From: a virus
Lineage: Duplodnaviria; Caudoviricetes
Strand: one strand, 5' to 3'
Length of the DNA stretch: 40,254 nucleotides
Virus record (IMG/VR): IMGVR_UViG_3300027819_000027
Coordinates: 1-40,254 of that record
Positions 1-40,254 of the stretch are shown here, piece by piece (position 1 is the first letter of the stretch; each line of letters begins with the position of its first letter). Below the pieces are notes generated by a model, which ran no database searches, was not told where the DNA came from, and saw nothing but the letters and a program-made list of their open reading frames with translations. The position numbers and the translations under genes are program-made.

Positions 1-99
1 TCAATTTTCAGCATCTCGTTTCTCCAAGTTGTTGCATAACCCGGCAGTCCACCTGACCTGCCGCGATAAGGCCGCGTCAGTCAGGTGACTTTTGCGTTA
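1..99 (+). repeat. Exact direct repeat of 39742-39840 (contig-end overlap)
   Basis: 99 identical bases; identity stops immediately after the attC core GTTA. Confidence 0.97.
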
Positions 100-102
100 T
101 GC
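34..102 (+). repeat. attC-like recombination site (copy of site A, short allele)
   Basis: GCATAAC...CACCTGAC...GTCAGGTG...GTTATGC, 69-bp imperfect inverted repeat bounded by AAC and GTT cores. Confidence 0.88.
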
Positions 103-264
103 TCGATGTAGAGCACTCCGGCTGATGATTTCGCGCTGCCCGTTCTCGACGAACTCAACCAACGCAGAATTACATCGGCCCCTGTAAATTACCCGACAGA
201 GCCTGTTGAAAAGCGTCTGCCGCTTAATGTTGTTTTTCCAGCAGTATCGGTACAGCGTGATCAT
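97..264 (-). CDS. Small hypothetical phage protein, 55 aa (MITLYRYCWKNN...ISRSALHRA)
   Basis: Read manually; stop TAA lies inside the attC GTTA core. Confidence 0.7.
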   Translation of the reverse strand: MITLYRYCWKNNIKRQTLFNRLCRVIYRGRCNSALVEFVENGQREIISRSALHRA

Positions 265-6872: not shown

Positions 6873-7036
6873 GCCAGCAATCTGAGTGGGAAAATCTAAA
6901 AGAGCGGGAGAATCAGGCATCGATTGACCGCCAGTTCTATGACGAAGAAGAACCATACTGGCCAGATAACGAACTGCCGGGCATGTGGGAGAACGCTGAC
7001 TTTATGGGTGGGGCTGTTTCCGCTCGCCTCGATTGA
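6869..7036 (+). CDS. Acidic hypothetical protein, 55 aa; its C-terminus is encoded by the terminal attC
   Basis: ATGA overlap with upstream gene; MSQQSEWENLKE...SARLD. Confidence 0.55.
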   Translation: MSQQSEWENLKERENQASIDRQFYDEEEPYWPDNELPGMWENADFMGGAVSARLD

Positions 7037-7046
7037 CTGGTTAGAT
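6988..7046 (-). repeat. attC-like site z (last in array, degenerate)
   Basis: GGAGAAC...GTTAGAT; stem relies on G-T pairs on the + strand. Confidence 0.6.
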
Positions 7047-7059
7047 GGAGTAATTAAAA

Positions 7060-7245
7060 ATGCAAAGAATACTTGTGCCATTATACACACTAATATTTTG
7101 GAATAGATTGTTAAATGGAGATAAATCACCATACCGCCGATCCTCTATTATTAAGGTGAAAGGCTGGCGCACAATATTGGTTGGCAGTCCATTTGCGAGA
7201 GAAACAATAACACCACTGTTCAAATTATGGAAGTGGTACATCTAA
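7060..7245 (+). CDS. Cassette-borne hypothetical protein, 61 aa
   Basis: GGAG RBS; flanked by GTTAGAT/ATCTAAC; stop in core. Confidence 0.65.
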   Translation: MQRILVPLYTLIFWNRLLNGDKSPYRRSSIIKVKGWRTILVGSPFARETITPLFKLWKWYI

Positions 7246-7300
7246 CGCTAAAGGTCAGCGGCAGGCGCTTTTGCCTGTCCGCTGTAGTGACTGGTTATGG
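7240..7300 (-). repeat. attC-like site a
   Basis: ATCTAAC...CAGCGGCAGGC...GCCTGTCCGCTG...GTTATGG. Confidence 0.88.
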
Positions 7301-7366
7301 AGGTAACGCTCAAGCTAAGCGGCGTGGCGGTCGTTTGCCACGTCCGTCTTGAGCGCTTTGTTAGCA
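7301..7366 (-). repeat. attC-like site b (abuts site a)
   Basis: AGGTAAC...CGGCGTGGC...GCCACGTCCG...GTTAGCA. Confidence 0.85.
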
Positions 7367-7383
7367 GGTTTTATAGGAGGAAT

Positions 7384-7866
7384 ATGATACCGACAGAGAC
7401 ATGGGTTTTACCAAGGCCGCGTAAGAACAGATACCCAGGAGGATTTCCACTTCACTTTGAAAAGAAATTATGGAAACTTCTCGGCTGCCCCACAATGGTG
7501 TTGCATCCCTTTGGAGGAGCGGCGGAGATAGGAGACAGGGTAGATATAAACCCAGAAACGAATCCCAAGTGGATCGGAGACGCACACAAACTTGATATGA
7601 TCCCAGACCAAAGTTATGACCTTGTAATTCTCGATCCACCCTATGACAATGAACAGGCTGCCAAACTATATAAAACACCAAAGTTGCATTATGGGAAATA
7701 TGTATCTGAGGCGATGAGAGTTTGTAAGATTGGAGGCAAGGTTGCCATATATCATTGGGTATGGACTCCGAGACCGAAGAATGGAAAGTATTGTAACCGT
7801 ATCGTAATCTTGACAAGGGTATGGCACAGACCAAGGGTTTGTAATGTTTATTTACGTGAAAGCTAA
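7384..7866 (+). CDS. Cassette-borne small amino-(N6A/N4C) DNA methyltransferase-like protein
   Basis: LHPFGG motif I, DLVILDPPY motif IV; AGGAGG RBS before ATG 7384; stop in AGCTAAC core. Confidence 0.78.
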   Translation: MIPTETWVLPRPRKNRYPGGFPLHFEKKLWKLLGCPTMVLHPFGGAAEIGDRVDINPETNPKWIGDAHKLDMIPDQSYDLVILDPPYDNEQAAKLYKTPKLHYGKYVSEAMRVCKIGGKVAIYHWVWTPRPKNGKYCNRIVILTRVWHRPRVCNVYLRES

Positions 7867-7947
7867 CGTAGAGATAACCCGCCGGCCACCGACCAGGCGG
7901 TAAAGTGACAGGCGTGGTTCCGGTCGGGGTTGATTGATTTGTTATAC
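7861..7947 (-). repeat. attC-like site c
   Basis: AGCTAAC...AACCCGCCGG...CCGGTCGGGGTT...GTTATAC. Confidence 0.82.
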
Positions 7948-7973
7948 GGATTATTAGGACATGAAGGAGAAAG

Positions 7974-8129
7974 ATGCCTGACCAGCAACCCCACTGTGTA
8001 GGGGATATATACGGCCAATGTTGTACCGCTATGGTGGCGGAAGTCGGAAAGACGCTGACATTGGTGGGTCTCGATACCCTTAAAATCATGCACGGATGTC
8101 CTTTTTATTTATTGTTGTATAACGCTTGA
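7974..8129 (+). CDS. Cassette-borne Cys-containing peptide, 51 aa (MPDQQPHCVG...)
   Basis: AAGGAG RBS; read manually; cassette bounded by GTTATAC/GTATAAC. Confidence 0.55.
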   Translation: MPDQQPHCVGDIYGQCCTAMVAEVGKTLTLVGLDTLKIMHGCPFYLLLYNA

Positions 8130-8194
8130 CTTGAGCGGCGGGGGTTTTATCCCGTCCGCGCGTAGCGAGGATCGGCTGGAATGACTGGTTGGGC
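8117..8194 (-). repeat. attC-like site d (apparently chimeric)
   Basis: GTATAAC...GTTGGGC; the two arms resemble different attC types and pair poorly. Confidence 0.65.
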
Positions 8195-8208
8195 GTAACT
8201 TTTGGAGG

Positions 8209-8286
8209 AAACATTCAGCCGCCCGGCCACTGATTATGCTATTTGCACAGAGCGTGTTCCGGGTCGGCTGGATTAACAGGTTATAT
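8209..8286 (-). repeat. Truncated attC-like site e
   Basis: TCAGCCGCCCGG...CCGGGTCGGCTGGA...GTTATAT stem intact; left core and spacer shortened. Confidence 0.65.
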
Positions 8287-8307
8287 TTAATATTTAAGGA
8301 GTTTACA

Positions 8308-8463
8308 ATGGCTAAAATATTCGACATAGTGATCTGCCCCGTTTGCAAAGGTGAAAAATTAGTTGATAGTGGCCAGGTAATGAAAGATGCAAAAATCTAT
8401 ATTACTAAAAAGCAATGCCCAAAATGCAAGGGGCACGGAAGAGTCGGAGTAGAGCGAATATAA
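8308..8463 (+). CDS. Cassette-borne DnaJ-type zinc-finger peptide
   Basis: CPVCKG and CPKCKGHG; AAGGAG RBS; stop in ATATAAC core. Confidence 0.72.
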   Translation: MAKIFDIVICPVCKGEKLVDSGQVMKDAKIYITKKQCPKCKGHGRVGVERI

Positions 8464-8525
8464 CGTTTGAATTCAGCGGCTACGCGCGTTTCTTGCGCGG
8501 AGTCCGCTGGAATGATGGGTTGGCC
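8458..8525 (-). repeat. attC-like site f
   Basis: ATATAAC...TTCAGCGGCT...AGTCCGCTGGAA...GTTGGCC. Confidence 0.9.
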
Positions 8526-8568
8526 GGCACCGTGCCGCCAGCACCGACTTTTGAGACAGGAGATAGTG

Positions 8569-8772
8569 ATGACGATCAAATTCACCGAAGGCGAGATAAA
8601 GGCGCTCGAAGGCCACCCGGACGCACTGCGCGCACTGGCGGACTGGCACAGCGTGAAGGAAACGGAAGCCGACGCAATAGGCGGGCCGGAGATGGCGGAC
8701 TGCGTAAGCCACCATGCGGCGCGCTACGACGAACTGCGCGCAGAGGCCACCAAGATCGAGGCGGACTACTGA
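8569..8772 (+). CDS. Cassette-borne hypothetical protein (MTIKFTEGEIKALEGH...)
   Basis: AGGAG RBS; visibly GC-rich codon usage; bounded by GTTGGCC/GGCCAAC. Confidence 0.7.
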   Translation: MTIKFTEGEIKALEGHPDALRALADWHSVKETEADAIGGPEMADCVSHHAARYDELRAEATKIEADY

Positions 8773-8784
8773 CATGGTAGTGAC

Positions 8785-8841
8785 GGCCAACGACGAAATC
8801 AGCGGGGAGCGTAGCGAATCCGCTGTATTGATTTGTTATTT
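8785..8841 (-). repeat. attC-like site g (57 bp)
   Basis: GGCCAAC...CAGCGG...CCGCTG...GTTATTT. Confidence 0.88.
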
Positions 8842-8857
8842 TCGCCATGAGGAATAT

Positions 8858-9049
8858 ATGACAAATTACAAAATAACTCAATTAGTTAAAACTGCATACA
8901 AAAACAGATCAGAAATAATTTACGAAATTAGTAATGAGAGATATGCGCGTACTGAGTTTGAAAGATTAAAAAAAGATTTTCCCGCTGAGCACTTTGAATT
9001 GTTTAAAGCTGTGTACGATGAAGAGTGCTTAGACTGGACTGGAAAATAA
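8858..9049 (+). CDS. Cassette-borne hypothetical protein (MTNYKITQLVK...)
   Basis: GAGG RBS; AT-rich; stop in AAATAAC core. Confidence 0.7.
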   Translation: MTNYKITQLVKTAYKNRSEIIYEISNERYARTEFERLKKDFPAEHFELFKAVYDEECLDWTGK

Positions 9050-9132
9050 CGTCTGAATTGAGGCGAGCGGCGCAAAAGACTTGGTGAGGAAAGAAGCGGC
9101 TTTTACGCTTCGCCTCGAATGATTGGTTGGGC
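9044..9132 (-). repeat. attC-like site h
   Basis: AAATAAC...TTGAGGCGAGCG...CGCTTCGCCTCGAA...GTTGGGC. Confidence 0.88.
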
Positions 9133-9153
9133 GTTTGCCCGGAGAGGAACCGA

Positions 9154-9366
9154 ATGACAAAAGAACTACCCCCGCCAGTGACGCGGAAAAGCTCGAAAGA
9201 TGACCTTTGGGAAGAACTGGAGTGCGCCCGAGCCGAAATTGACCAACAGCAGCATGTGCTCAATGACTGGCGTGACCGTGTAGCGAAATCTGAGGCCGAA
9301 GTTGGTGGCCTGCGCTACCAGATCAGCGTGATTCGCGCTGTGCTGGCTGGGGATGTTCCACGGTGA
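9154..9366 (+). CDS. Cassette-borne coiled-coil hypothetical protein (MTKELPPPVTRK...)
   Basis: GAGG RBS; bounded by GTTGGGC/ACCCAAC. Confidence 0.7.
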   Translation: MTKELPPPVTRKSSKDDLWEELECARAEIDQQQHVLNDWRDRVAKSEAEVGGLRYQISVIRAVLAGDVPR

Positions 9367-9367
9367 C

Positions 9368-9407
9368 ACCCAACAGCGCAATAGATGGAATAATTCCACT
9401 TATTGAG
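9368..9407 (-). other. attI-like array-head site, copy 1
   Basis: CTCAATAAGTGGAATTATTCCATCTATTGCGCTG|TTGGGT on the minus strand; similar to 39476-39515 and 39932-39971. Confidence 0.65.
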
Positions 9408-9447
9408 ATAAGGGGGGGGATAAGGCGGAATTGTCAGCCCCCTTATC
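9407..9447. terminator. Inverted repeat between convergent operons, possible terminator
   Basis: GATAAGGGGG...CCCCCTTATC 10-bp stem. Confidence 0.4.
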
Positions 9448-10829: not shown

Positions 10830-10864
10830 ATCGTCCTCCTCAAATCAAGATGTTAAATCAACTT

Positions 10865-11110
10865 TTAATTCCCAAACCTTAATGGTGTTTCTGAAGCCGC
10901 TCTTGCCTCGACTTCGTAGTCAATATTCTTATAACCCTTCGTTGCCCACTGCTCCTTGTGTTTATCCTCGTGCCATTTCCAGCGGTCGCTGACATTGGCG
11001 GCAGGACACGAGTAATATGTTGTCTGGCCTATGGTGACGGCGTAGTCCTTCCCTTTTGGAGCGAAGATGAGCTTGAATAATCTCCCTAGCCAGTGGTTAT
11101 ATTTGTTCAT
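10865..11110 (-). CDS. Small HExxH-motif protein
   Basis: AVTIG...HEDKH...YEVEAR; AAGGAG RBS. Confidence 0.55.
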   Translation of the reverse strand: MNKYNHWLGRLFKLIFAPKGKDYAVTIGQTTYYSCPAANVSDRWKWHEDKHKEQWATKGYKNIDYEVEARAASETPLRFGN

Positions 11111-11201
11111 TGTGGCTCCTTTTAGGTTTGGAACGCTGCCATGTTCTTTGTCATGTTCTCATCATGGATTTTTTGCAGCCATTCTTTCATAAATTCATTC
11201 C

Positions 11202-35657: not shown

Positions 35658-35990
35658 TTAGCAGCTCCTAAACGCTGGCGTCTTGTTCCCGTTTTTGGCA
35701 TGGATTAGGCGCGCTATGGCCTGGACCTGGGGTATTGTGATGTCTGGGCGGATAAATATGCCGTCGGGCGTCCAGGCTGTTATGCCTAGGTCTCGGCGCA
35801 TATCTAGATGGAGATCGGCGTCGAGGCGCACTAATCCAGTTGACTGGACTGGCACTCGGCAGGGTTGGCTGGGTGTTACATTTTGGGTGTTACATTTTGG
35901 GGGTGTTACAACTGATATTTGGCTGGGTGTTACATTTTGTCGGCGTGTCCGCTGATACTCTGCCATCTCTGTCGCGGTGCGCTGTTTCAT
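35658..35990 (-). CDS. Hypothetical protein with NVTP repeats
   Basis: AEYQRTRR start; first gene of the late operon. Confidence 0.55.
   Translation of the reverse strand: MKQRTATEMAEYQRTRRQNVTPSQISVVTPPKCNTQNVTPSQPCRVPVQSTGLVRLDADLHLDMRRDLGITAWTPDGIFIRPDITIPQVQAIARLIHAKNGNKTPAFRSC
35871..35939. repeat. Four GGGTGTTACA(TTTTG) direct repeats
   Basis: Copies at 35871, 35885, 35901 and 35925. Confidence 0.85.
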
Positions 35991-37159: not shown

Positions 37160-37315
37160 TCCAGTTGACTGGACTGGATTAAAAAAGTTCTTGACTTTCG
37201 GCTCCTTTATGGCACAATAAAAGTCATCAGGTTCGTCGGCGGACGACTTGCAGCCCCTGGCCTTGATCTGGGGGCTGGCCTGGTGACTTAAAATAATGCT
37301 ATCAAGGAGCATATT

Positions 37316-37762
37316 ATGGAAACATCAGTTCGTAAAGTAAAATCCCGCAACAAGAAAGCCTATCATCCCGGTTTCGTTTTGTTCCCTCATGCAATTATTG
37401 ACAGCGGAGCATTTAAGGAGCTATCTAATTCTGCAAGAGTTGTTCTGCTTTTGCTTATGCGGCAAAAGGGGAAGAACGTCGCTCAACCATCGGTAAAATT
37501 CCCATACAAGGACGCCCGTAAATATTTGAACGGTTCAACATTCTCAAAAGCAACAGACGATCTGGTAAAGTTTGGCTTTATTGATTTGGAAGTAGCGAAG
37601 CGGTTAGGCTCCGATATTAGGCAACCGAACGTATATGTTTTCTCCGACAGGTGGGTGACGGTGACCTTGCCTATGGCAGATTCTATAAGGTGTCCTAAGA
37701 ATAGGACTATGAAGGACATTAAAACAGGGCTTTACACTCCTAAGCTTAGGACGATGGGTTAG
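37316..37762 (+). CDS. Winged-HTH replication-initiator-like protein
   Basis: FVLFPHAIIDS.AFKELS..AR.VLL...L...GFI...PN.Y; AAGGAG RBS; repeats at the 3' end. Confidence 0.6.
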   Translation: METSVRKVKSRNKKAYHPGFVLFPHAIIDSGAFKELSNSARVVLLLLMRQKGKNVAQPSVKFPYKDARKYLNGSTFSKATDDLVKFGFIDLEVAKRLGSDIRQPNVYVFSDRWVTVTLPMADSIRCPKNRTMKDIKTGLYTPKLRTMG

Positions 37763-37819
37763 ATCACAGCAGGCTTCATGCTCCTAAAAGTAGGACTATA
37801 CATACTCCTAAAAGTAGGA
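37693..37819. repeat. Four TCCTA-N4-TAGGA palindromic repeats (iteron-like)
   Basis: Copies at 37693, 37738, 37782 and 37806. Confidence 0.85.
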
Positions 37820-37857
37820 TTGGGAAAGGATATGCGTAGCTGACGCGATAGCGATTC

Positions 37858-38034
37858 TCAAGGCGGCTCAATTCCATCCCTCCGTTTTATCCCCGGCAAC
37901 GTTGCAATATTCACCCGGCAGACATGGTCGGGGTCTCGCCGGCCAGGCATCAACTCGCCGGCGATTGTCCAGAGTTCCCGCCGACAGGTGATGCAGCGTC
38001 CGACATATAGCTTGCGCTTGTCTTGGTTTTTCAT
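37858..38034 (-). CDS. Small hypothetical protein (CITC...HVC)
   Basis: ATG at 38034; last gene of leftward operon. Confidence 0.5.
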   Translation of the reverse strand: MKNQDKRKLYVGRCITCRRELWTIAGELMPGRRDPDHVCRVNIATLPGIKRRDGIEPP

Positions 38035-38053
38035 TAGCTGCCTTCTTGCGCTG

Positions 38054-38245
38054 TTATGTGGACAATACAGCATGATACGATTTATCCAGCAATGCCTTAA
38101 ATTCCTCAGCCGCTTCTTTGTCGAGCCAATGAAACAATCGTGGAGATTCAAAGTTGTGGTCTCCAACTGGCCGGACTGCCCACATCCCATAAAAGGATTC
38201 GTCGCAAAAAACCTCCCATTTAACCCGTATTTTTGTATCTCTCAC
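38054..38245 (-). CDS. Cassette-borne hypothetical protein
   Basis: GGAGG then GTG; stop in GTTATGT core. Confidence 0.6.
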   Translation of the reverse strand: MRDTKIRVKWEVFCDESFYGMWAVRPVGDHNFESPRLFHWLDKEAAEEFKALLDKSYHAVLST

Positions 38246-38252
38246 AATACCT

Positions 38253-38313
38253 CCATAATCAATCACTACAGCGGACGTCTAGGAGTGCCTGCCACCGCCC
38301 CTTGGCGTTATCT
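38253..38313 (+). repeat. Degenerate attC-like site
   Basis: CCATAAT CAATCACTACAGCGGAC...GGCGTTATCT; 5' arm nearly matches the minus strand of site a. Confidence 0.6.
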
Positions 38314-38490
38314 CTTAAGATCATCAATCGCATCGTCAAGTGTATCCGCAACATCCTTTAGACTTTTGACCGTGTACGTTCCGGGATGATCAGTCAACAC
38401 GCCGCCCATCGTGATTACATCCTTAACCACTGCAACAGGCGTAAGTGCTGTCTGGATTACTACCGCCGTTAATTTCCCCAAGAATCCCAT
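38308..38490 (-). CDS. Small hypothetical protein (MGFLGKLTAVV...)
   Basis: GAGGAGG RBS; stop in GTTATCT core. Confidence 0.65.
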   Translation of the reverse strand: MGFLGKLTAVVIQTALTPVAVVKDVITMGGVLTDHPGTYTVKSLKDVADTLDDAIDDLKR

Positions 38491-38522
38491 AATCCCCTCC
38501 TCCTCAAAATTAAGGTAAAAAT

Positions 38523-38795
38523 TCACTCTATCGGAGTGCCAAAAAGAGGCGCGCGCCTCTTTTTCCCCTTTTGCCAGCCTTTTCCGCGCGGGACACAGCA
38601 CTCACACAAATCCATCCTGCCCGGAAACTTTACCCCATAATCCCTTGCCAGCCGGTCAAGGGTTTGCCGGTTGATCTCAAGCGTGGCCGCTGTCAGCCTC
38701 TTGGAATACCCCAGGCCGGCAAAGTCCCTGAGAATTTTAGACGGCGGCTCGTTGTATTCCTGCCGAAGCATTCTTTCAACGTTGTGGTATGCCAT
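38523..38795 (-). CDS. Small HTH-like protein
   Basis: GYSKRLTAATLEINRQTLDRLA. Confidence 0.6.
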   Translation of the reverse strand: MAYHNVERMLRQEYNEPPSKILRDFAGLGYSKRLTAATLEINRQTLDRLARDYGVKFPGRMDLCECCVPRGKGWQKGKKRRAPLFGTPIE

Positions 38796-39038
38796 TTAAA
38801 GCCCCTCTCTTTTCTGCCCTACGCCTACCACGTCTTTTGCAATGTGTAGCCCGAATGACCTATCACAGGGCAAGGAAACGGCACTTACCGGGGACATCTC
38901 TCGTGTGCATCCTTTGGAGTAAAACGTAAAATACTCACACCGCCGCGTAATCGATCCTGGTTTAAACCCCACACAATCGTTTTGCTCCCCCTGAGCCGTG
39001 CAGATGCTTTGTGTTACCGTTTGTCTGTAGTCGATCAT
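38796..39038 (-). CDS. Cys-rich hypothetical protein
   Basis: 80-aa ORF in operon. Confidence 0.5.
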   Translation of the reverse strand: MIDYRQTVTQSICTAQGEQNDCVGFKPGSITRRCEYFTFYSKGCTREMSPVSAVSLPCDRSFGLHIAKDVVGVGQKREGL

Positions 39039-39048
39039 AATTCCCTTT

Positions 39049-39459
39049 CTAGTTTGGCAGCTTGGCCAGGAGTTCTTTTAGCTCTATGATTTTATCTTCA
39101 TAGAAGCCCTTTGGAAGCTTACACACTTGGCGGCTCGCGTCCAGGTGTTCGTTGTACCTTTTCGCCCCGATTTCCCCAATCAATTTAGGCACAAATATTT
39201 CGTAATTGCCCCGTAACGGCCCGTTACAATAATAACACTGCGGCCTGACGACATCGTCCTGGAATAGGATGTAGTTTCCCCGCCCCCCGATCCCGTGGCC
39301 GGCTTGTAGGTTTTTCCAGAGATCAATTTTCCCGCAGGTGTAGCATTGGCAAAGTCCGTCATCGTAGGAATATTTCAGCCGGACCATTTTCGAAAACAAA
39401 TCCCAGCAATCCTTCTTCATCTGTTTAGGTGTTTTCCCTTTGGACTTTTTCTTTTCCAC
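39049..39459 (-). CDS. ninG: NinG/Rap-like recombination endonuclease
   Basis: W.LFS..VR...CYTCG...QAGH...RPQCYYCN. Confidence 0.8.
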   Translation of the reverse strand: MEKKKSKGKTPKQMKKDCWDLFSKMVRLKYSYDDGLCQCYTCGKIDLWKNLQAGHGIGGRGNYILFQDDVVRPQCYYCNGPLRGNYEIFVPKLIGEIGAKRYNEHLDASRQVCKLPKGFYEDKIIELKELLAKLPN

Positions 39460-39475
39460 TTTACCCCCTTGTTGC

Positions 39476-39515
39476 CTCAATAGGCGGAATAGTTCCGCTT
39501 ATTGCGCTGTTATGC
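39476..39515 (+). other. attI-like array-head site, copy 2
   Basis: CTCAATAGGCGGAATAGTTCCGCTTATTGCGCTG|TTATGC. Confidence 0.65.
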
Positions 39516-39755
39516 ATCAACAACACCGGTGTCCATCCGGTCATCGGCTGAAAAATGCCGCCGGTTATAGTTGCCACCGAGCGCCGATGAAAGCGCCTTT
39601 CCTTTTTCGTCATCGAACAGCTTCACAACCATGCCGTCAGGCCAAATCTGTGCGCCAATCGCTAAAACTTTCCCCGCCTTGTTTGCGTCGCGCACGGCCT
39701 GAAAAAGCGGCTCCAGCAGGGTTATTTGTTCTTCCGTCAGTTCAATTTTCAGCAT
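39510..39755 (-). CDS. Cassette A hypothetical protein, 81 aa
   Basis: GGAG RBS; bounded by GTTATGC/GCATAAC; stop in core. Confidence 0.72.
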   Translation of the reverse strand: MLKIELTEEQITLLEPLFQAVRDANKAGKVLAIGAQIWPDGMVVKLFDDEKGKALSSALGGNYNRRHFSADDRMDTGVVDA

Positions 39756-39774
39756 CTCGTTTCTCCAAGTTGTT

Positions 39775-39843
39775 GCATAACCCGGCAGTCCACCTGACCT
39801 GCCGCGATAAGGCCGCGTCAGTCAGGTGACTTTTGCGTTAGGC
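39775..39843 (+). repeat. attC-like site A (long allele)
   Basis: GCATAAC...GTTAGGC. Confidence 0.9.
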
Positions 39844-39931
39844 ACAGCCCAGTACCAAATGTCGTCGCGCAACTTGACACCCTCGGCAAACGGGTGTGAC
39901 CTTTTTCTTTTCCACTTTACCCCCTTAATAT

Positions 39932-39971
39932 ATCAATAGGCGGAACTATTCCGCTTATTGCGCTGTTATCT
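39932..39971 (+). other. attI-like array-head site, copy 3
   Basis: ATCAATAGGCGGAACTATTCCGCTTATTGCGCTG|TTATCT. Confidence 0.65.
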
Positions 39972-40151
39972 TTTAGATATTTCCTTTATTTCTTGCTCGA
40001 TAATTTTTTTACTATTTCTTCGCCGGGTAACACGAGAGAAAAACTTAGCTATTTTTCTGATCCCGATTATTTCCCACGGACTCCGGCCAGCTTTATGTCC
40101 CTGCTCCGTTTTTCGGGCATAATAATTAGCATAATAATTATTGTAACTCAC
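39966..40151 (-). CDS. Cassette B basic hypothetical protein
   Basis: GTG at 40151; AT-rich; bounded by GTTATCT/ATATAAC; stop in core. Confidence 0.55.
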   Translation of the reverse strand: MSYNNYYANYYARKTEQGHKAGRSPWEIIGIRKIAKFFSRVTRRRNSKKIIEQEIKEISKR

Positions 40152-40171
40152 GTGATCAACCCCAATTAAAA

Positions 40172-40230
40172 ATATAACCAGTTCACTCCAGCCGACCGCA
40201 GAATCGCGGCGGCTGACCTTTGCGTTATGC
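40172..40230 (+). repeat. attC-like site B
   Basis: ATATAAC...CAGCCGACCGC...GCGGCGGCTG...GTTATGC. Confidence 0.88.
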
Positions 40231-40254
40231 TCGATGTAGAGCACTCCGGCTGAT

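Follow-up and report, generated by a model that had tools for sequence, protein, structure and literature searches.

The phage genome analysed here occurs in two forms that differ by 387 bp between two integron-type attachment sites, attC-A and attC-B, and we hold with moderate confidence that the difference arose by attC × attC recombination catalyzed by a putative host integron integrase (IntI) acting in trans. The window, the 40,254-nt stretch of DNA that we analysed, is an entire virus record, which is classed as linear with a completeness of 100%. PHROGs matches among its 56 ORFs include terminases, portal, head, head closure, primase, helicase, exonuclease, and ninG, and by these gene matches the virus is a tailed phage of the short-tail type; an integrase was absent from the PHROGs matches of the 56 ORFs. 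Searches for close relatives returned one distant locus with the helicase protein, nothing but the record G002 with the proteins of two ORFs of the variable locus (ORF Y and ORF X), and no match among 50,697 GenBank phage records. G002 is 100% identical to the window over 10994-40254 (29,261 bp), has the long form of the locus, and extends to window position 183; it may stem from the same population as the window.

The two forms are visible in the ends of the window. Positions 1-99 are identical to 39742-39840 (99 nt; the next base is T versus G), as the preliminary description had claimed, and 91-126 are identical to 40219-40254 (36 nt). The latter match had been placed at 96-126 and 40224-40254, where it is indeed exact, but it begins five bases further left (91/40219). 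Both matches contain the 9-mer TTTGCGTTA, which is present in the window only at 91-99, 39832-39840, and 40219-40227 and is common to all three junction points. The window contig starts on one branch of an assembly bubble, rounds the genome, and ends on the other branch. The features of the locus that these junctions involve are as follows.

1..99, no strand: contig-start copy of 39742-39840; the point where the assembly graph branches rather than a biological repeat
91..126, no strand: stretch common to the contig end 40219-40254; opens with the common 9-mer
34..102, minus strand: attC-A, short form; 37.4 bits; R' core GTT at 96-98 on the plus strand; R boxes pair at 7/7 positions
39775..39843, minus strand: attC-A, long form; R'' arm with an unpaired G at its position 16; R boxes pair at 6/7 positions
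40172..40230, minus strand: attC-B; 34.4 bits; R' core GTT at 40224-40226 on the plus strand; R boxes pair at 5/7 positions
39838..40224, no strand: variable segment of 387 bp, long form only

The repeat spacings of 39741 and 40128 give the sizes of two circles. These sizes had been claimed before, and they agree with the contigs of two sequencing runs labelled as groundwater metagenome, X1 and X2, in which both junctions are present. The runs contain 99% of the words of 37300-40254. Their contigs are near-identical, and they are probably one data set filed twice, which is counted once here; they possibly hold the same reads that gave the window, and the support for the alleles probably represents one sample. 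In the Logan contigs (k=31) of X1 and X2, the trunk contig stops at 39840 (depth 42.6/41.2 in X1/X2) and divides into a long branch covering 39811-40248 (438 nt, 17.5/16.8) and a short branch of 51 nt corresponding to window 70-120 (11.8/11.8, 28% of trunk). The trunk restarts at 40219, which equals 91 (43.6/43.0). The coverage of 39838-40224 was lower than that of the trunk (41%), as had been predicted. A path in a de Bruijn graph with k=31 needs reads that cross the 9-nt match, so both junctions exist in the library, and a mis-join through the 9-mer is ruled out by their presence in these contigs. Two genome forms segregate in the phage population. The branch depths together amount to 69% of the trunk; as causes of the missing 31%, integration of the phage into a host site at attC-A and a third allele in X1/X2 were both rejected, because no host flank and no extra branch is listed at 39839-39840, 39965, or 39509. 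No contig of the excised circle was among those listed for X1/X2, and contigs drop rare forms. Two further runs, X3 and X4, contributed only short pieces with a depth of 2-4, none of them at the 387-bp bubble. Another assembly carries ORFs X and Y on one contig of 40,269 nt, equal to 40128 plus 141, the extra 141 nt being presumably an assembler overlap. In a contig of 40021 nt (P0001, compared with window 39966-40244), ORF X is one residue shorter, which makes it a further variant of the phage.

Integron integrases cut between the G and TT of the attC core, and attC × attC recombination excises the intervening DNA. We examined whether attC-A and attC-B are such sites and which of their ends was joined. 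RYYYAAC and GTTRRRY boxes that close a hairpin of 57-141 nt are present in attC-A (69 nt) and attC-B (59 nt), which have 42 aligned bases in common; the R box of attC-B is unpaired in unconstrained folding. The minus strand of both sites folds better than the plus strand. A covariance model scored attC-A at 39.7 bits on the minus strand versus 7.7 on the plus strand, and attC-B at 34.4 on the minus strand. The model was trained on 34 attC bottom strands from outside the window, of which 26 were picked with a pattern from the window's second array and the other 8 belong to a class 1 integron and to Tetrasphaera phage TJE1. In the accessible text of the respective papers, an attC site's bottom strand is recognizable from a G left unpaired at position 16 of the R'' arm (PMC2727003, PMC5027507) and from the T-6bp-G signature, a T six pairs beyond the unpaired G on the R'' arm (PMC5027507, Nivina 2016). 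Both attC-A and attC-B have this unpaired-base signature (G in L'', T six pairs on, R'' arm) on the minus strand. The signature detector found five sites in the class 1 integron region and 0-1 matches in 10 shuffles of the window. On TJE1 it found three sites, opposite their genes, plus two weak matches, and two of the detected sites are bottom strands of Table S3 in the accessible part of PMC9892861.

Signature and model hence agree with the preliminary description that both sites are attC-like, and with its assumption that R' is the right-hand GTT on the plus strand. With the minus strand as the bottom strand, this right-hand GTT is R', the end that IntI cuts. A break at R'', which was our first idea as the genes run on the minus strand, is ruled out by the same signature and model. 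The short form keeps the body of attC-A, as expected of an excision product of attC-A and attC-B, and this means an R' crossover, since an R'' crossover would keep attC-B. The break had been described as lying exactly between G and TT; the GTT is within the 9-mer, but the sequence alone fits a break at any position of the 9-mer. It is very improbable that the short junction is a library chimera that arose when templates were switched from one hairpin to another. X1 and X2 are perhaps a single data set and all other assemblies that can be assigned to a form carry the long one, but the depth of the short branch is 11.8, the sequence of the junction is just what an R' crossover predicts, and no such joint was found at other hairpin pairs among the matches listed.

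We next considered which enzyme could act on these sites. Six-frame searches with PF00589 and TIGR02249, which were positive in 14/14 control genomes, gave no tyrosine recombinase match in the window (G000), in G002, or in G001 and G003, two unrelated phages with attC rows. With a phage that lacks a recombinase, we infer that a host IntI is the simplest source. Following established integron chemistry, the minus strand of attC-A and attC-B would fold when single-stranded, IntI would cut both sites within the R' AAC, and the exchange of one strand, with replication after it, would join attC-A to ORF Z and release a 387-bp circle. On this reading the segment probably left, or entered, the genome through site-specific recombination of the integron type, for which the phage probably borrowed the IntI of its host. 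Loss is slightly favored over gain, because the R boxes pair at 6/7 and 5/7 positions in the long form versus 4/7 in the circle needed for insertion. IntI1 recombines 5 of 6 tested phage attC sites (PMC9892861, Qi 2023). It is rather improbable that some other recombinase, be it of the Xer type or supplied by a co-infecting phage, acts on these sites in place of host IntI. Recombinases are present near other viral arrays in 4/34 and 1/13 records, the former being PF00589 matches in records with the signature, but the other 30 of the 34 records, many of them fragments, are without a match. The partial matches in L189 and L190 belong to short ORFs (78 and 149 aa) that show nothing array-specific and look like ordinary partial phage integrases, and attC-A and attC-B bear the unpaired-base signature that IntI reads.

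The junction could also have formed without any integrase, if a polymerase stalled at the hairpin base of attC-B and slipped to the 9-mer of attC-A, or through a phage annealing protein. The 9-mer holds the GTT and is the longest exact match between attC-A and attC-B, with both copies at the hairpin base, and the junction alone therefore cannot separate IntI from slippage. Among the genes of the phage are ninG and one for an exonuclease, and integrase-free loss of 60- and 400-bp cassettes is described in the accessible text of PMC5371416 (Loot 2017). In the 400-bp case there, however, the sites were 83% identical, as opposed to the 42 aligned bases common to attC-A and attC-B. Moreover, the 9-mer is only one of 28 repeats of at least 9 nt in the two accessory regions. 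A 69-nt repeat with 88% identity in the same locus has no branch among the contigs listed, and neither this repeat nor any of five others, 9-13 nt long and located at R'' ends, has a joint among the matches listed; that the better 69-nt repeat was left unused favors a site-specific cut over slippage. Three comparisons with other sequences favor a site-specific cut as well. First, a 455-nt contig of run X5, from another study, equals 1-98 exactly and continues with 226 different letters after the same GTT, so that a third partner breaks at the same GTT. Second, attC-A is 95-97% identical in the otherwise unrelated phages G001 and G003, and the match stops at 98 and 99. Third, 7 of 8 informative block ends (≥97%) in the related viral contigs L038, L047, and L051 are at an AAC core and 1 is at R'', as judged by eye and with the L026/L045 pair (81% identity) left out of the count. 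A wider breakpoint screen of 58 viral sequences with 34 ends placed 2 at R', 2 at R'', and 30 elsewhere. Considering all this evidence, we regard integrase-free deletion as unlikely and retain recombination by IntI as the preferred reading. As separate observations, L038, L047, and L051 contain units of 250-370 bp shuffled between AAC cores (for example L047 1043-1293) and a second family of short sites that was missed by the attC profile.

The variable segment belongs to a small array of minus-strand genes that lies directly next to ninG; the features of this region are as follows.

97..264, minus strand: ORF Z, 55 aa; no Pfam match; stop codon in the R' core rejoined by both forms
39049..39459, minus strand: ninG/Rap endonuclease; PF05766, E 5.7e-10; likely start GTG 39459; longest ORF from 39480
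39478..39511, minus strand: armless site 1; an AAC with a conserved arm of 16 nt, lacking an R'' box; G and TT meet at 39509/39510
39510..39837, minus strand: cassette Y; attC-A heads the ORF 39510-39755 (81 aa); in both forms
39838..39915, minus strand: 25-codon ORF; stop in the R' core of attC-A; first five codons as in ninG
39934..39967, minus strand: armless site 2; inside the segment; G and TT meet at 39965/39966
39966..40224, minus strand: cassette X, 259 bp; attC-B heads an AT-rich ORF of about 61 aa (GTG 40151)

The segment, which had been taken as one cassette, contains two ORFs, one attC, and one armless site and is composite. It consists of a 128-bp piece with a copy of the armless site (39838-39965) followed by cassette X (39966-40224), and only the latter fits the canonical cassette rule of one ORF and one attC per unit. 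Armless site 2 lies in the 69-nt repeat, whose other copy is 39445-39513 (exact runs of 26, 13, and 21). The 25-codon ORF is not a fragment of ninG, as only the first five codons are common to both. ORF Y has 17 matches including itself and no Pfam match, and ORF X has no relative but itself. Weak sigma70-like matches (9/12) at 40159-40131 and 40147-40119 point from cassette X towards cassette Y and ninG; nine such matches were found in the region versus 3.5 expected, which is only a lead. Under the CALIN rule of at least two close attC sites without intI, the window contains two sites 330 bp apart and, elsewhere, seven within 1.9 kb. Three observations were made near the first array: 38248-38310 is a decayed attC-like site with a 78% inverted match to 7243-7305, a short site at about 38054 resembles the armless one, both being missed by the model, and 38302-38339 is present in a depth-2.6 contig with other flanks.

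The window has a second array on the opposite strand.

6994..9410, plus strand: second array; seven clear attC sites, two weak ones, and small plus-strand genes; inverted layout like the first array
7240, 7301, 7861, 8117, 8458, 8785, and 9044: clear attC sites of the second array, from the covariance model
7384..7866, plus strand: DNA methyltransferase gene of the second array
9372: armless site at the far end of the second array

On the whole window the covariance model gave 10 clear matches (attC-A twice, attC-B, and seven in 7240-9132) and 2 weak ones, and all attC matches are on the strand of the neighbouring genes. A canonical cassette is a top-strand ORF followed by its attC. In both arrays of the phage the ORFs are instead on the bottom strand, and the controls L024 and L014 showed the canonical orientation. 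G001 and G003 have rows of 7 and 10 attC sites, on one strand each, and the genes around attC-A are on the attC bottom strand there too. We surveyed the orientation of sites with one fixed signature in a viral and a bacterial collection, which yielded 34 viral and at least 137 bacterial sites; 48 of the 128 bacterial loci had 300-nt flanks only. By a simple ORF rule, the viral sites were 23 inverted, 2 canonical, and 9 unclear (n = 34), and the bacterial sites among the matches listed were 9 inverted, 83 canonical, and 45 unclear (n = 137). The excess of inverted sites in viruses corresponds to a Fisher p of 5e-15 for the sites called by this simple rule, which are not all independent. In the inverted layout, attC heads its gene and a TAA in the R' core often ends the preceding gene. 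Genes on the bottom strand would thus travel with the attC at their head while the crossover core supplies the stop codon of the previous gene, so that cassettes could be gained or lost without breaking reading frames.

Several observations concern individual sites of this type. In 7240-7366, one attC site follows directly on another without an intervening gene, which amounts to an empty cassette. The attC at 7301-7366 recurs in contigs whose depth greatly exceeds that of the phage (a sum of 312 at 7331 for X1 and 131 for X3). The flanks of such contigs in X1-X3 read like the start and end of a canonical cassette, which makes them a candidate host integron and counts in favor of IntI from a host. 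A 265-nt contig of X5 corresponds to 8788-9051, nearly exactly one AAC-to-AAC unit, with one difference, and X5 is without most of the phage despite this unit. One of the two viral sites called canonical adjoins a 328-aa tyrosine recombinase (L188, in G012), and this record is perhaps a true integron fragment.

Read in top-strand sense, each array is headed by an armless site, the one at 39478-39511 beside ninG and the one at 9372. The motif was present in 18 viral stretches, 17 of them in other records, and 8 of these 17 have an attC within 1.2 kb. Five other phages have 25-69 nt in common beyond the armless AAC and 0-6 nt before it, the motif pattern itself fixing most of the first 19 nt. 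Neither the bacterial loci L060-L187 nor G001 and G003 contained the motif. From its position, armless site 1 may be attI-like, or it may be half an attC, and the distribution of the motif suggests that it may behave like a docking site.

Recombination by IntI could have happened now or long ago. The preliminary description had cassette gain or loss segregating and concluded from it that the system is, or was until recently, active. The co-occurrence of both alleles bears out the first part, but activity is not established: the phage is without an integrase, no excised circle was seen, and the genome has a second bubble away from any attC. In X1/X2, a contig with a depth of 14.9 joins 10889 to 10994, compared with 33.4 for the window form. 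The bubble (10890-10993) is inside the ORF 10865-11110, between tail and lysis genes, and G002 ends exactly at its node. A weaker joint connects 10862 to 11128 (depth 3.2). A real possibility, if short of an even chance, is that the sample contains two long-separated genotypes with no recombination now, which is compatible with an origin by IntI. Two co-existing genotypes would account for both bubbles, which have a similar split; the shorter ORF X of the 40021-nt contig is in line with this, and SNP bubbles are hidden in contigs. On the other hand, no variant letters were found for X1/X2 over the 16 kb compared, among the matches listed, the trunk contigs are continuous for 28.8 and 7.2 kb, and G002 is 100% identical over its entire 29,261-bp match.

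Clusters of attC sites in phages are already published. Phage CALINs such as that of TJE1 (PMC9892861) likewise have attC clusters between small ORFs and no integrase, and they have a methyltransferase cargo and the unpaired-base signature, as here. The genes of TJE1 are opposite the bottom strand (canonical), whereas those described here are on the bottom strand; the figures or the Dryad annotation of PMC9892861 may show how genes are oriented in its other CALINs. The main text of that paper mentions neither a naturally occurring presence/absence polymorphism nor an attI-like site in the CALINs of virulent phages. Classical excision by IntI, according to the accessible parts of PMC2727003, PMC5027507, and PMC5371416, also uses a bottom-strand hairpin with a G at position 16 and a crossover in the R' core, with a product that keeps the upstream attC. 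Unlike in classical integrons, the phage has no intI in cis, its genes run antisense to the top strand, the unit that varies is composite, and two arrays run in opposite directions within the phage genome. IntI can place cassettes away from the integron at short GWT-type sites, and such attG secondary-site insertions and SALINs, as far as the accessible text describes them (10.1101/2022.09.11.507474), could seed arrays like these; SALINs use random sites there, whereas the arrays here end at a conserved armless site common to other phages. A literature search with subscription journals mostly outside its scope found no paper on inverted phage attC arrays or on attC sites that are naturally polymorphic in a phage. 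Within that search, an integrase-free array with inverted genes and a natural allele pair, segment present or absent, at the R' core had no published counterpart.

A broader model, in which integrase-free phages run a mirror-image integron with attI-like docking sites, inverted cassettes, a host IntI borrowed during infection, and a shuffling of accessory genes so fast that gain and loss segregate in one wild population, is speculative, and we put it forward tentatively. If it is true, the 387-bp bubble would be cassette shuffling caught in the act. The inversion would then leave host defence cassettes silent once a phage has captured them, and likewise those of the phage once they are in a host; it would also place the strand that recombines on the lagging-strand template for co-oriented genes. 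Phage attC clusters have so far consisted of static annotations plus an E. coli assay only. The natural two-allele locus shows R', the end that IntI uses, as the crossover of an inverted site, and attC-A and attC-B offer themselves as a pair of substrates with which the remodelling of phage genomes by host integrases can be tested. Integron cassettes include anti-phage defences, according to the accessible text of 10.1101/2024.07.02.601719. If host integrases remodel phages, integrons would serve the phage side too, which bears on phage mosaicism and on the origins of cassettes.

Three minor features lie outside the attC sites. A 22-nt palindrome-like, operator-like repeat is present in four copies (5762, 35831, 37156, and 3439). 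A short tandem-like repeat of about 14 nt occupies 35870-35957, just upstream of the small terminase gene. Finally, 39074-39103 (30 nt within ninG) is matched by a 1329-nt contig of X2 that continues with a CRISPR-type repeat, which we take to be of type I-C, and the match looks like a host spacer against the phage.
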